A stretch of DNA of 64,000 nucleotides, taken from the NCBI RefSeq assembly GCF_006345805.1, contig NC_043023.1, positions 21,266,001 to 21,330,000 on the forward strand, in the 5' to 3' direction. The DNA comes from Octopus sinensis. Lineage: Eukaryota. The position numbers and the translations under genes are program-made. The notes beneath the pieces were generated by a model, which worked only from the letters and a program-made list of their open reading frames with translations, did not search any database and was not told the origin of the DNA. Position 1 is the stretch's first letter. Each line of letters opens with the position of its first letter. This document shows positions 50,621 to 61,306 of the stretch, piece by piece.

Positions 50621-50748
50621 TTATCTACGAACACATGTTCTCCCATTGAAACGGAACCCTGGTTTACACAAACATTTGTAGGACCCTATTGTGTTGACGC
50701 ATTTCCCGTATCTACCGCATCGAAAACTCCTTCTACACTCGTTTACAT
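50621..50748 (-). CDS. EMI-EGF gene coding exon 7: cbEGF-like domain + stop ([42 protein letters not shown])
   Basis: D-x-N-E-C calcium-binding EGF consensus, C.NT.GSY.C.C..GF; acceptor ttcatttgcAG; phase 1; TAA at 50621-50623. Confidence 0.9.
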
Positions 50749-51053
50749 CTGCAAATGAAAACAAATTTATTGCACTTAATTGCATGTATATAAAACAGAT
50801 GCATTATTTGGGGTTGGGTCAATGTAATAAGCACCAGTTATACTCTGGGGTCGATGTAATCGACTAGACCGATTCCCCCAAAAGTTTGTGACATTAAATA
50901 TGTTCGTTGTTACACTGATTTTTACACGGATTTTTCAAACGGAAAAACACTTTGTAACTTTAGTCCTGTGTTTTGTCCCTTTATGGTATAATTGATTTTT
51001 GTTAGCCCTTGTGGCGAATAAGCGAATTAATTATTATTATCTTTTTTCTTCTT

Positions 51054-51125
<72 letters not shown>

Positions 51126-51216
51126 TATTATTATTATTATTATTATCTCCCAGCCAATTGCTTATAGATATACGTGTGTATATTGTTCTTGTAGCTGCTG
51201 TTTGTCCTTTACTTAC

Positions 51217-51336
51217 CAACACATGTTCTTCTATTGAAATAATAGCCCCGTCTGCAGTAACAAGTGAAAGAGGTTCCTCTCTTGACGCATCTACCATTTC
51301 TCCCGCACCGATTCCATCTGCACGGTCCTCCGACGG
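51217..51336 (-). CDS. EMI-EGF gene exon 6: EGF domain (AVGGPCRWNRCGRNGRCVKRGTSFTCYCRRGYYFNRRTCV)
   Basis: 6-Cys EGF pattern, 120 nt, ctttccAG / GTAAGT, phase 1/1. Confidence 0.9.
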
Positions 51337-51620
51337 CTGGAAAGCAGAACAGAAATAACACAATTATATATAACAATCAGAATTCTTTCATCATCATCAT
51401 CATCATCATGATCATCATCATAATGACAGATAGTTACCACACCGGGTGTCATTTCGACAGCGTCTGTTCTTTCTAAGTTCAAACACCACAGACGTCAACT
51501 TTGCCTTTCATCGCTTCCGGGTCGATTGAATAAGTAACAGATGTTCACTGGGGTCGATGTAATCGACTTATCCCCGACCCAGAATTACTTGCCCTCTGTG
51601 GCAATTTGGAAATCATCATT

Positions 51621-51672
<52 letters not shown>

Positions 51673-51794
51673 ACATCATCATCATCAATCATCATCATCA
51701 TCATCATCATCATCACACATCATCATCATCATCATTATCATCATTATGATCATCAACACCAACATCATCATCATCATCATCACCATCATTATTA

Positions 51795-56953: not shown

Positions 56954-57046
56954 CGGTATTTTGTACACCGTCTCAAAAACCAGCACCAGCTTCTTCGGGC
57001 CCTTTTGTAGGTCACGGTTTTATAACATCTCACTCGACATATTCCC
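56954..57046 (-). CDS. EMI-EGF gene exon 2: N-terminal half of EMI-like domain (GICRVRCYKTVTYKRARRSWCWFLRRCTKYR)
   Basis: WC....RC..YR pattern of EMI domains; strong acceptor ctttctttttttccAG / GTAAAT; phase 2/2. Confidence 0.85.
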
Positions 57047-57199
57047 CTGGAAAAAAAGAAAGAAGGAATATATAAGTGTGTGTGTGTGTATAAATATATA
57101 TACATATACATATAAACGCATATAACACTATAAAAATAAAATCCCTTGAAGGAATGGGTGGGGGGTTCCAGAGATATAAAAAGACGAATATACAAAGAA

Positions 57200-59070
57200 C
57201 TGACTTGCGATCGCCTTGGAAACAAGGCCACTACTCAACGACATTAGATCACTAAGTGTCGATGTAATCGCCATCAGTGAAACTAGACTTTCCGACCGAC
57301 ATGCTTTCTTGCCATCTTTCGCGGGATACGAGAAGTATTTATCTCCATGTCAACCGGGAATCGGAGGTTGAACGGCGGCGTTGATCCGTAGGGGCATGGA
57401 TCTCAACATAAGGACTATCTTCCTGGATCCAGAAGGAGAGATGATGGTCCTGGATGCGAATTGTAGTGACGGGGGTACTTACAGACAGGTACCTGTTTAT
57501 ACTCCGATAGAAGCAGGGAAGCCGTATATCTTCAGACATCGAGAGGTATTCCTAGGAATGCCTCGAAATTTAGAGTTAGTGGGCAACTGGTACGGTGCCT
57601 TAGAGATACAATTGGACTGTGTGGGTCTAGCGAATAGAAAGCGGATGGTAAAAGCCTGTATGGGGTCAACCAGGTCGTATTTTGATGAGGAACGGGGTTC
57701 TATAGGCAAGTAGATTAACGTTAGTAGAAGTTGTTAACCTAGATAGGCTTAGAAGGCAGGGATCCGGTTACTGGAGGCTGAAAGCGTTGCTCCCAAAGTG
57801 CCAATCCAACAGAGACCGAATTAGACAATTAACTAAGATGGCGTTGATGGGGCTAATCGTCAACAACAAATGATGGTTGGCGTTAGGTAGGTTTATTAAA
57901 GCATTAGTGGTAGAGATGGATAAAACAGAAGGGAATTTAGTCAGTAACTTCGAAATGGCGCTTTGGAAGAACATTGCAGCTGACCTGCTTGCTGCAAGAT
58001 TAGCTCTGGACCATTTGCTCAAAGATAAACACGAAGGTTGCCTTGTCAGATCTAAGGTGCACTCTGTAAGAGAAGAGGGAAGGAAAGCCCCATAATGGGG
58101 GTCGAATGACAGACGCACAACGTCAAAGCAAAGTCACTATTCAGTCTTTGGTGGACCAAAATGGGCGCAAGGAACTCCAACCGGAGAAGATGTGTGAGGT
58201 ATTTCAAGATCCCTTTGGCAAATGTGTGGAACGTAAAGATATCCAGAACGTAGGATGAACAAACGGATTAAGTCGATTATATCGATCCCAGTGTGTTACT
58301 GGTACTTATTTAATCGATCCCGAAAAGATGAAAGGCAAAGTCGACCTCGGCGGAATTTGAACTCACAACGTAACGGCTGTCGAAATACCGCTAAGCATTT
58401 CTCCCGTCGTGCTAACGATCCGCCTTTGTTTGACAGCCTTCTAGTAGATCTGCCAGAACTGCTACCGTAACTGGTACCAGAACAGGCCATTTCCCAATTC
58501 TGTGAGTCTAGGAGCGGTGGCACTGCTAAAAATGGACCCAAACAAGGGAGATGAAATAGAAAACTAGGTTCATAACGCTGCTGAACACAGACATCAAACT
58601 TTCGAGCAGGCTGTTAGCAAAGGGGTCGGCGCTTATCATCGAAGAACTGCTCCCACTTGGAGGACGGATTCGGATTTCAGCTAAGTTATTGGTAAGGATC
58701 AGCCCGCTGCTTTCTTCCAACCGGGAGGGACAGGCATCTTTGCTTAGTCTAGTGGCCATAGCGAAAGAGGTTGCCTGGTGGACCTTGCTGAAAGGGCTGA
58801 AGACAGACACTTTCCTCTTTACCCAGAATCTCAAAGTGAGGGTAAAGAGGGAAGTGCTGCCACCTAGCAATTTTGTTAAAAGATGGGTGAATGTAGCTCG
58901 AATGGCCCTAGTGAATGGTCTTTCTAGAAGTACGCGCCTGTACATTAAGGGCACATGAAGTGAAGAGAGCATACACCCTAGATGTCAGAGTGATCGTTGT
59001 TTTTGTGGGGTTTCAATGAGCAGCCCCTTTTGTGTAAACCCTTAGTGGCGAAAAAAGAAATTATTATTAT
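57200..59070 (+). mobile_element. Degenerate, internally deleted L1/Tx1-like LINE with a family-B SINE fragment inserted (~58253-58420)
   Basis: APE remnants VDVIAISETR, VYTP and GSGYWRL; RT start ITLLNTDIKLSSRLLA; tail cccttagtggcgaaaaaagaaattattatt (similar tail at ~51000-51035). Confidence 0.65.
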
Positions 59071-59759
59071 TGAGTGAGAGAGCAGTGCATGCCATCAAAG
59101 TGACACCGTGGTAAAATATACGAAGCTCAGTATACCCATCATGACTACCCGTCTGATAAGGGTACCCCAGGCACATGCATCACAACCATATGTGCGGGAC
59201 ATGGTGATCTCATATCAAGATAAATAGCGCATGATCTTGCAGGTGGGGACCAGTTAGAATTTTCTTCTGGTCGAGAAGCCCATCCCACTCCAAAGTTCAC
59301 TGAATAAGGGTTGTTTAAGGATGTTGAATAAGGGTTGTTTAAGCTATATTTGACCCGTCGCTCCGTTCTGATTTCGAATTCCCCAAAGTGCACTTTGCTT
59401 TCTTCCTTTCAACGTCGAGAAAATAACAGACTAGGCTCTATGTAATCGACTCGCCCTCACCTCACCCCAAGCTGCTCTTGTGGCAGAAATTTGAAATCAC
59501 ACTAATTATCATTATTATTTGAAACAGTTTTATTTGGGCCCCTTCAGGTTCGTCGCTCCGTTACAGGAATCTGGCTTGTTGAAGATTGGCGCAACAGAAC
59601 CAGAATATATCCAGAAAGTTGGTGGAACATCCCAATAGAATCAGCAAACAGGATTAAATACAGCGGACCCTATATTGATGCAAGGATCAGGAAAACAAGT
59701 CAAGTACTTTTAGGAGAGATCGTCTGCCCAGTCGTATGTCAATATCTCATCGTATTAAA

Positions 59760-60155
59760 GAAGCGAGCTGGCAGAAACGTTAGCACGCCGGGCGAGATGC
59801 TTAGCGGTATTTCGTCTGCCGTTACGTTCAGAGTTCAAATTCCGCCGAGGTCGACTTTGCCTTTCATCCTTTCGCGGTCAATAAATTAAGTGCCAGTTAC
59901 ACACTGGGGTCGATAAAATCGACTTAATCCCTTTGTCTGTTCTTGTTTGTCCTCTCTGTGTTTAGCTCCTTGTGAGTAGTAAAGAAATAGGTATTTCGTC
60001 TGCCGTTAGGTTCTGAGTTCAATTTACGCCGAGGTCGACTTTGCCTTTCTTCCTTTCGGAGTCGATTAAATATGTACCAGTTACGCACTAGGGTCGATAT
60101 AATCGACTGGCCCCCTCCCTCCAAATTTCGGGCCTTGTGCCTCAAGTAGAAAAGA
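59760..60155 (+). mobile_element. tRNA-derived SINE, family B
   Basis: gcgagctggcagaaacgttagcacgccgggcg...gagttcaaattccgccgaggtcgac; other copies at ~49757-50105, 53125-53335, 55808-56012. Confidence 0.8.
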
Positions 60156-60569
60156 ATATCTCATCATATATTAAAGAAAAAGAGGGATCTATGGAGAACT
60201 GTTTGAAAAAATACAGTTATGATATACAGGCTATGGGTTTTCATTTCTACCTACTGACAGAGATGCACTGGGCTAAGTAAAAACAGATCGACATAAAAAC
60301 TACAAATGCTGGGGTAATTCAGGTACCCTGAGTCCCTTCTGTTGCAATCGTTAGGGCCAAGCCCCACCTCACCCATTGCTTCCCACATATGCCAGGGGCC
60401 CTGAACAGAGCTACGGGCTCAACTCCTCTCTTTTCACTAAAACACTTAAAACATTCACACGAAGATAGACACGGTCCGATTATTTAATAAGAAAAAAGTA
60501 AAAAACCACAAGAAGCCCCGAAGAGGAAAGTGGCGATGTGAAACCGGGTGGAATGAAGCATTAACTTAC

Positions 60570-61306
60570 CGAGAACTGGACACAGCAAGGCTTTCTCCTT
60601 CGGTTGTTGAGTTTCCAGAATCAAGCGTTTCGCTAGAAACCGACGTTCCATTATTCAGTAAGAGACTCTCAGTCGCTGCTTCATCTTCACTCTCGGAATC
60701 TGCTTCATCCGCTGACTCCTCCAATTCCGCCGACTCGTCGTCACCCACTGATTGTCCTCCATCGTTTGATTCTTCATCCGCTGACTCGCCTTCATCCACT
60801 GACTCGTCTTCGCTCACTGACTCGTCTTCGTTCACTGACTCGTCATCACCTACTGATAGTCCTCCATCGTTTGAGTCTTCATCCACTGACTCGCCTTCAT
60901 CCACTGACTCGTCTCCGTCCACTGACTCGTCATCGTCCACCCATAGTCCTCCATTGTCTGAGTCTTCACCCTCTGACTCGTCTTCATTCACTGACTCCTC
61001 TCCATCCACTGACTCGTCTTCACCGTCCTCTGACGACTCGTCATCCACCGGGACTCCGTCCTCCTCTGATTCCTCTCCACCCTCAGACTCTCCTTCATCG
61101 CCTGATTCTTCTCCACTCTCTTCTTGCTCTTCATTCTCCGATGAAACATCATTTACCGACGGGTCTTTGTCGCCTAACGTCACATTCCGCCCTTCACTAT
61201 TCACTGACGGTCCTTTAGTCACAACTGACCCATTATTCACCCGTTGTCCTTCAGTCACCCAAAGACCAACGACGAAAAGAAATAAGAAAAGAACGAGATT
61301 CTTCAT
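60570..61306 (-). CDS. EMI-EGF gene exon 1: signal peptide + Asp/Glu/Ser-rich repeat region (245 aa)
   Basis: acagccATG at 61306; MKNLVLFLFLFVVGLWVTEG signal-like peptide; ESV(D/N)E(D/G) hexapeptide repeats; donor CG|GTAAGT at 60570, phase 2 matching exon 2. Confidence 0.9.

Follow-up and report, generated by a model that had tools for sequence, protein, structure and literature searches.

What would an octopus do with a protein that is strongly acidic over one half and strongly basic over the other? That question is posed by a gene found within a 64,000-nucleotide stretch of Octopus sinensis DNA (NCBI RefSeq assembly GCF_006345805.1, contig NC_043023.1, positions 21,266,001 to 21,330,000), which in its entirety is referred to here as the window. 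The gene occupies window positions 50621..61306 on the minus strand and consists of seven exons, encoding 464 amino acids with one terminal stop. It is indeed a real octopus gene, present in multiple copies, and its product is a ‘charge-split’ protein that is predicted to be secreted. A preliminary description, made from the sequence alone, had recognized the gene itself but had missed both its multi-copy state and its membership in a family.

The charge split is substantial. Residues 21 to 246 include 86 aspartates or glutamates, only 5 lysines or arginines, and no cysteine, for a net charge of -81. Residues 246 to 464 include 60 lysines or arginines, 3 acidic residues, 32 cysteines, and 32 tryptophans, tyrosines or phenylalanines, for a net charge of +55. 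An acidic, cysteine-free N-terminal half and an aromatic-rich cationic half, both as put forward in the preliminary description, thus are present as described. That description had also called the charge split atypical, which is upheld by comparison with other EGF domains. That is, the four EGF cores of the window gene have net charges of +10, +9, +10 and +9, all above the maximum of +7 among 3101 control EGF cores (mean -1.9; from 155 of 156 proteins), this being a control set skewed toward fibrillin-like calcium-binding EGFs (cbEGFs) because it was collected by searches with EGF queries.

The gene model that underlies these numbers is reproduced in full from the preliminary description, i.e., exon lengths of 737+93+77+120+120+120+128 = 1395 nt, GT..AG boundaries at all six introns, and matched phases of 2, 2, 1, 1, 1 and 1. 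Exon 1 in its entirety (60570-61306, as delimited by splice sites and phase) begins with a predicted signal peptide (residues 1-20, at 61247..61306, a hydrophobic stretch as judged by eye), while the rest of it (residues 21-246, at 60570..61246) is the acidic, serine- and glycine-rich, cysteine-free region as defined by composition, repeats and alignment with the related protein P0011. A candidate TATA box (TATAAA, 61548..61553, minus strand) lies, by sequence reading, about 240 nt 5' of the ATG. Exons 2 (56954..57046) and 3 (56357..56433), recognized by splice sites as well as in the contigs described next, encode the two halves of a cationic, EMI-like domain, here termed the ‘head’, with exon 3 supplying a CCxGW...C motif. 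Exons 4 (55041..55160), 5 (53394..53513), 6 (51217..51336) and 7 (50621..50748, including the stop codon) each encode one EGF domain. As a separate observation, the end of exon 7 (50621-50630) is found where sister EGF exons have a splice donor, reading GTAGAT here versus GTAAGT there.

Splicing was addressed with contigs from sequencing runs guessed to be of RNA (‘RNA-like’). Exon 1 (60569) is joined to exon 2 (57045) in two of four such runs (X1 record 1 and X5 record 24), and the exon 2-3 junction (520 skipped, CT..AC) is present in all four. The preliminary description had called for junction support in RNA and had allowed that exon 1 might not be spliced to the head and EGF exons; support exists for these first two joins, contigs linking exon 1 to exon 2 included, but none of the joins from exon 3-4 through exon 6-7 was seen in the RNA-like contigs. 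These later joins are supported instead by splice sites, by phases, and by six other copies of the gene, in which the exons follow one another in the same order. The contigs extend 5' to 61465-61506, though contigs cannot define a start, and the exon 1 stretch is present in RNA-like runs of four studies. One contig of a further run, X12, fuses a signal-peptide-like piece (61245-61313) to a head-exon-like piece (56954-56997), in the style of the short-spacer paralogs described below, and has a word depth far above that of the window-gene contig in the same run, contig depth being a poor measure.

The acidic region has conserved ends and a middle that is built of repeats, i.e., an 18-nt unit in 14.3 copies (60771-61022) along with a 105-nt duplication (60732-60940). 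Exon 1 encodes 42 serines, and its signal region is 59-78% identical over about 27 amino acids in eight other aligned family loci. In P0011, an unnamed near ortholog, the acidic region is identical at 182 of 226 positions and has a net charge of -82, with the head identical at 48 of 56; the paired charges in this comparison are -82 and +18 for P0011 versus -81 and +18 for the window gene.

The EGF domains, for their part, appear to have multiplied by exon duplication, with exon 6 identical to exon 4 at 114 of 120 nucleotides and exon 7 identical to exon 5 at 93 of 120. Each has six cysteines and an EGF-clan match in Pfam, with exons 4, 5 and 7 passing the curated cut-off and exon 6 just below it (19.4 vs 21.5 bits). 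EGF 1 is of the non-calcium type and EGF 2 is cbEGF-derived, its first acidic cbEGF ligand replaced by tyrosine, whereas EGF 4 retains the cbEGF acidic motif; in three of the four, the calcium motif is lost in whole or in part. For the exon 6 EGF, the preliminary description had counted ten basic and no acidic residues. The ten lysines or arginines are there, but so is one acidic residue, an aspartate whose codon is split between exons 6 and 7. When longer proteins were searched with exon 7, the nine matches were all generic fibrillin-type EGF proteins, and no lectin family in Pfam was found in any exon of the window gene, nor in the family members P0010 and P0011.

Is the head then an EMI domain, as had been suggested? 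It has eight cysteines, no acidic residues and 19 basic ones, and it keeps a CCxGW..G..C motif. Against a cut-off of 25, the Pfam EMI model (PF07546) reaches just 9.4 bits (E 2.5), and this in one of four family members scanned. A genome scan with PF07546 found three places, none of them from the charge-split family. EMI domains are defined, in a passage of PMC3342094, by seven cysteines at regular positions and a C-terminal motif of the WRCCPG(Y/F)xGxxC type. The head has eight rather than seven, with C-x3-C at its start and C-x2-CC at its end, and a divergent paralog, C10758, carries RCCPGY. A profile of the family head matches the second exon of two canonical EMI domains at E ~0.006, in what is a small set. 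By gene structure the head is like EMI domains, i.e., a single copy, N-terminal to EGFs and spread over two exons. Moreover, a canonical EMI-EGF-cbEGF gene of the EGFL7/8 type, with a Pfam-positive EMI, lies elsewhere in the genome (G000:C2:90174048-90197445, plus strand), and it shares with the head both intron phases 2-2-1 and a mid-domain intron four residues after a cysteine.

The AlphaFold2 model of the paralog P0010 has a long beta hairpin at 63-96 with moderate confidence (mean pLDDT 62). Fold searches with that model gave EGF matches only and none for the head, and the head had no match among PDB sequences. The structures nearest to the head in the Atlas are EGFL7/8 EMI domains, at a TM of 0.53-0.57, a value below that required to name a family. 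We read the head as a diverged EMI. Because it falls short of the Pfam EMI cut-off yet has intron phases in common with the C2 gene, the window gene would be a derived paralog rather than an EGFL7/8 ortholog, and the family, as inferred from those phases, an offshoot of an EGFL7/8-type gene rather than a member of EGFL7/8. The preliminary description had raised the prospect of its being a plain ortholog of a characterized family, but the EGFL7/8-type gene lies separately, on C2.

Differences from EGFL7/8 indeed are considerable. Like those proteins, the window protein has a signal peptide followed by a single two-exon EMI-type head and then EGFs. EGFL7 and EGFL8, however, are described in a passage of PMC2901201 as having exactly two EGFs behind the EMI, the distal one calcium-binding, and the C2 gene has the order EMI, EGF, cbEGF, whereas the window gene has four and its paralogs from 2 to 33. 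A 226-residue polyacidic insert before the head, the eighth cysteine, the extreme arginine content and the multi-copy state are further differences. Nor does the window protein have a coiled-coil tail, ending as it does two residues past the last EGF, this 3' end coming from the gene model; at the C2 gene a crude scan found no coiled-coil exon. Draper, MEGF10 and Nimrod C receptors, which also combine these domains, have a transmembrane segment and a cytoplasmic tail, whereas the 464-residue model, past its signal peptide, lacks any hydrophobic segment.

The gene is not alone. The assembly (2.72 Gb in 13516 contigs) holds at least 11 other family loci, with the promoter, signal peptide and exon 1 end recurring on C1, C5, C8 (two), C9, C10, C11, C26 (two) and C27, the contig of the window, as well as on small contigs. 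Their common layout is a signal, a spacer of 41-225 amino acids, a cationic head, and 2-33 EGF exons. The closest paralog by tree (G000:C10:4108497-4156678, minus strand) combines a 41-residue spacer and a cationic head with 33 mostly near-identical acidic EGF exons, long near-identical arrays being found in the C1 and C9588 paralogs too. On C8 there is a head-to-head pair (G000:C8:72579558-72673772), long-acidic and cationic, whose heads have diverged although their exon 1 sequences are nearly identical. The C9 member (G000:C9:72979635-72984461, minus strand) passes directly from signal and spacer into EGF exons, with no head exons found, and for a C11 exon 1 of net charge -38 (G000:C11:53071386-53071796, plus strand), 110 kb of downstream sequence yielded neither head nor EGF exons.

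Beyond O. sinensis, the homolog search in molluscs called for by the preliminary description did yield octopus relatives, namely P0010 (O. bimaculoides), P0105 and P0110 (both O. vulgaris) and P0011, but no others: A head profile recovered only these four input proteins among 1642 candidates (three labeled Octopus, one without organism). As that search was word-limited, the missing squid and cuttlefish relatives are weak evidence, and the family may, so far, be restricted to octopuses. A search of representatives with P0010 gave family members at three of 150 listed matches (P0010, P0105 and P0110), the rest being swamped by EGF arrays. A loose DNA pattern gave 2070 matches and was discarded. 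The database names of P0010 (adhesion GPCR E2) and of P0105 and P0110 (‘wall 2-like’ and fibulin-1-like) are misnomers for family members.

The amplification is recent. An identical exon 2 protein is encoded at seven places, namely an inverted pair on C27 plus five others on small contigs, these seven copies being 97-99.4% identical over 6-10.6 kb. The second C27 copy (G000:C27:21185523-21195828, plus strand) lies about 130 kb away, is inverted, and is 99.2% identical over 10.6 kb; its exon 1 is 105 nt shorter and has lost its start to a 100-N gap. Beyond the window, C27 continues for 1.1 kb. Some copies may be uncollapsed haplotypes. Exon 1, however, has 246 or 211 codons among copies, and there are at least three exon 1 variants, which argues for more than one real locus. 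At C10767 and C11577, exon 7 is followed by another block of exons 5-6-7 whose phase is compatible, and these copies might thus encode a seven-EGF form. Recent amplification with variant copies would fit selection for dosage or for diversity.

What might such a protein be doing? The reading toward which we lean, tentatively and with something just short of even confidence, is that of a charge-masked cationic surface binder, likely defensive, acting by analogy in the manner of proMBP or the prodefensins. The two-block protein, i.e., a polyacidic region plus an arginine- and aromatic-rich EMI-like head with four EGFs, would be secreted, with the acidic block neutralizing the cationic block during synthesis and storage. 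Release would follow either cleavage by a protease at a basic residue before the first cysteine of the head or exposure to salt and divalent ions. Once free, the cationic block could bind to negatively charged surfaces and clump them, the likeliest targets being microbial envelopes. The gene for such a protein would have originated through duplication of an EGFL7/8-type EMI-EGF gene, with later duplication of EGF exons (4-5 giving rise to 6-7) and growth of the 18-nt repeat in exon 1.

Precedents for masking of this sort exist. In proMBP-1 the acidic propiece is believed to neutralize a domain of pI 11.4 (passage in PMC11483036), and in defensins and frog peptides the net charges of propiece and mature peptide are in balance (passage in PMC7073735). 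Shared with the window gene are a signal, an acidic, cysteine-poor region, an arginine- and aromatic-rich disulfide-bonded block, and charge balance across family members (here -81 and +55). The folds nevertheless are unrelated, being C-type lectin and defensin, and the cationic block here comprises five domains, so that the analogy would be solely one of action. For bacteriostatic cephalopod secretions, the precedent is the cuttlefish egg-case proteins SepECP1/2, which are cationic (+70, +42) and cysteine-rich, agglomerate Vibrio, and are both structural and bacteriostatic (PMC4500399). They are likened here by description; the passages seen of PMC4500399 make no mention of EGF, and they have no acidic block and a different cysteine motif.

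If the acidic block is a canceller of the cationic block, then both charges should vary together. Across 11 modeled paralogs they do, in a test carried out after the sequences had been seen: N- and C-terminal net charges correlate with a Spearman rho of -0.83 (p 0.0016), which becomes -0.90 without the head-less C9 and -0.77 when a single member of the C8 pair is kept, C11 having been left out as it has no downstream exon in 110 kb. The strongest cationic charges of all (+47 to +53) belong to the three genes whose N-terminal charge is -67 or below, and a single clade of these three long-acidic genes is rejected by the tree (p-AU 2e-96). That is, the window gene falls in with genes that have a short spacer and an acidic array (support 82/87), and the C8 pair with C1, C5 and C11 (100/100). 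Within each sub-clade, cationic character belongs to the long-acidic gene, the EGF arrays of its short-acidic neighbors being neutral or acidic. Masking, as had been proposed in the preliminary description, to that extent is in agreement with charges that track across paralogs and with P0011 keeping both.

A number of points weigh against this reading, however. Removal of the three long-acidic genes leaves rho at -0.57 (p 0.14), and the tree supplies only two independent contrasts (the starred branches), both in the expected direction, so that a sign test cannot reach significance. Paralog C26a is strongly cationic (+43) with little acid (-13), as is its O. vulgaris counterpart P0110 (+34 with -10), and in the window gene about 27 negative charges are left over once the basic charge is balanced. 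For C1, C5, C9588 and C26b the EGFs counted are a minimum, and in C1, C5 and C26a the assembled exon 2 is either aberrant or out of frame. A processing site is not apparent, either. Cleavage between AVSSSR and GIC, as earlier suggested, finds no support, there being no dibasic or RxxR motif before the first cysteine of the window-gene head but only a single arginine. P0011 does have RRSR there, and five of nine resolvable paralogs have a dibasic pair, which is unremarkable given how basic such sequence is. Lastly, the same features that fit an antimicrobial protein fit a glue or matrix protein.

It is this adhesive or structural account that is the nearest rival, if one that we consider rather unlikely. 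Here both blocks would remain in one chain, with self-coacervation or electrostatic assembly giving rise to a glue, coat or fiber, and paralogs with 15-33 EGFs would be fiber components. The lack of a convertase-type site at the acidic/cationic junction and the long near-identical EGF arrays of the C1, C10 and C9588 paralogs favor it, as does the presence of EMI domains in multimer-forming matrix proteins (passage in PMC2901201); the 15 tyrosines of the cationic half and the 42 serines of exon 1 could, in addition, be modified. Octopus egg threads, moreover, consist of a tandem-EGF protein, octovafibrin (PMC10336842), so that there is a likeness in being a secreted octopus protein of tandem EGFs. 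Octovafibrin of O. bimaculoides has, however, C-type lectin domains at both ends and 29 EGFs, with cysteines at 5, 10, 16, 25, 27 and 36, and neither an EMI nor an acidic block is described for it in the passages seen of PMC10336842. Identity with octovafibrin was rejected, by its lectin ends and since the 22 peptides listed there are, as compared by eye, without match to the family. Among mussel proteins, Pvfp-5b is among the EGF structural matches of P0010, though weakly (Z 2.5 only). Mussel foot protein 2 (mfp-2) likewise is made of cationic, tyrosine-rich tandem EGF domains. Neither mfp-2 nor Pvfp-5b is known to have an EMI head or a long acidic block, and the basic residues here are arginine rather than lysine, unlike those of mussel foot proteins. 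Scaling of charge compensation across paralogs would be expected with masking, yet is compatible with adhesion and so is indecisive.

Less probable still, and in our view distinctly improbable, is a matricellular, EGFL7-like role, in which the protein would bind sulfated glycans or receptors within the octopus extracellular matrix and the acidic block would serve as a soluble spacer. The intron phases held in common with the EGFL7/8-type gene, the EGFL7/8 EMI neighbors of the head in the Atlas (under the family-naming bar as these are), and the finding of exon 1 in RNA-like runs of four studies all are consistent with such a role. The canonical gene nevertheless persists on C2, calcium motifs are lost wholly or partly from three of four EGFs, and neither recent amplification nor fast change in domain number would be usual in a developmental matrix factor. 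Very improbable is a component of the salivary or venom gland, e.g., a membrane-active or carrier protein that is cationic but kept in store as an acidic precursor. A cysteine-rich, cationic, multi-copy protein with a pro-like acidic region would suit it, and EGF modules are present in cephalopod DECA-CTX proteins (bioRxiv 10.64898/2026.04.09.716377). No Pfam toxin family passes, however, D_CNTX appearing only at E 0.3-0.45; the LDL-A, Sushi and TSP1 domains of DECA-CTX are absent from the window gene; and EMI goes unmentioned in the passages seen of that preprint. The toxin hypothesis of the preliminary description has no evidence in its direction.

Elsewhere in the window are probable mobile elements or their remains. 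A 775-residue open frame at 1971-4298 (plus strand) matches reverse transcriptase (E 3e-30) and, weakly, PHD, as from a LINE-type retrotransposon. A fragment at 37129-37770 (plus strand) matches the Pif1 helicase 2B domain and is presumably a Helitron remnant. Within intron 1, a degenerate coding-like stretch at 57300-59050 (plus strand) has the appearance of a decayed retroelement, with two of its open frames lacking a Pfam match.

No description of the family was found in print, as searched in full-text literature with most subscription journals outside its scope, and skin-mucus proteome supplements may list members. The accessions of P0010 along with one predicted peptide had no matches in the part seen of one such supplement (PMC10138644), which is no evidence of absence; the text seen of a paper on the oviducal gland (PMC8976471) has no passage on EGF, fibulin or fibrillin; and the EGF passages of PMC9712504 concern other genes. 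Both the domains and the acidic-pro principle are already known, and it is their combination in an amplified octopus family that appears to be new.

We know of few dedicated antimicrobial or adhesive effector families from octopuses, and candidates in the octopus mucus proteome paper are mainly histone-, mucin- or hemocyanin-derived. An amplified family with EGFs above 3101 controls in cationic charge is a candidate for salt-tolerant microbial binding or, instead, for an uncharacterized egg cement. Taken more broadly, and this is a view that we hold to be possible but doubtful, an EGFL7-type matrix gene may have turned into a fast-evolving octopus family of secreted polyelectrolytes, its repeat-built acidic exon tuned at least twice independently so as to cancel the charge of an arginine-rich EMI-EGF rod, with the product a pro-effector or coacervate used for defense or for gluing in seawater. 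The paralogs in any case make up a natural series in which to test how the charge of a pro-region is balanced by that of a mature protein with several domains, earlier work having been mostly on short peptides.

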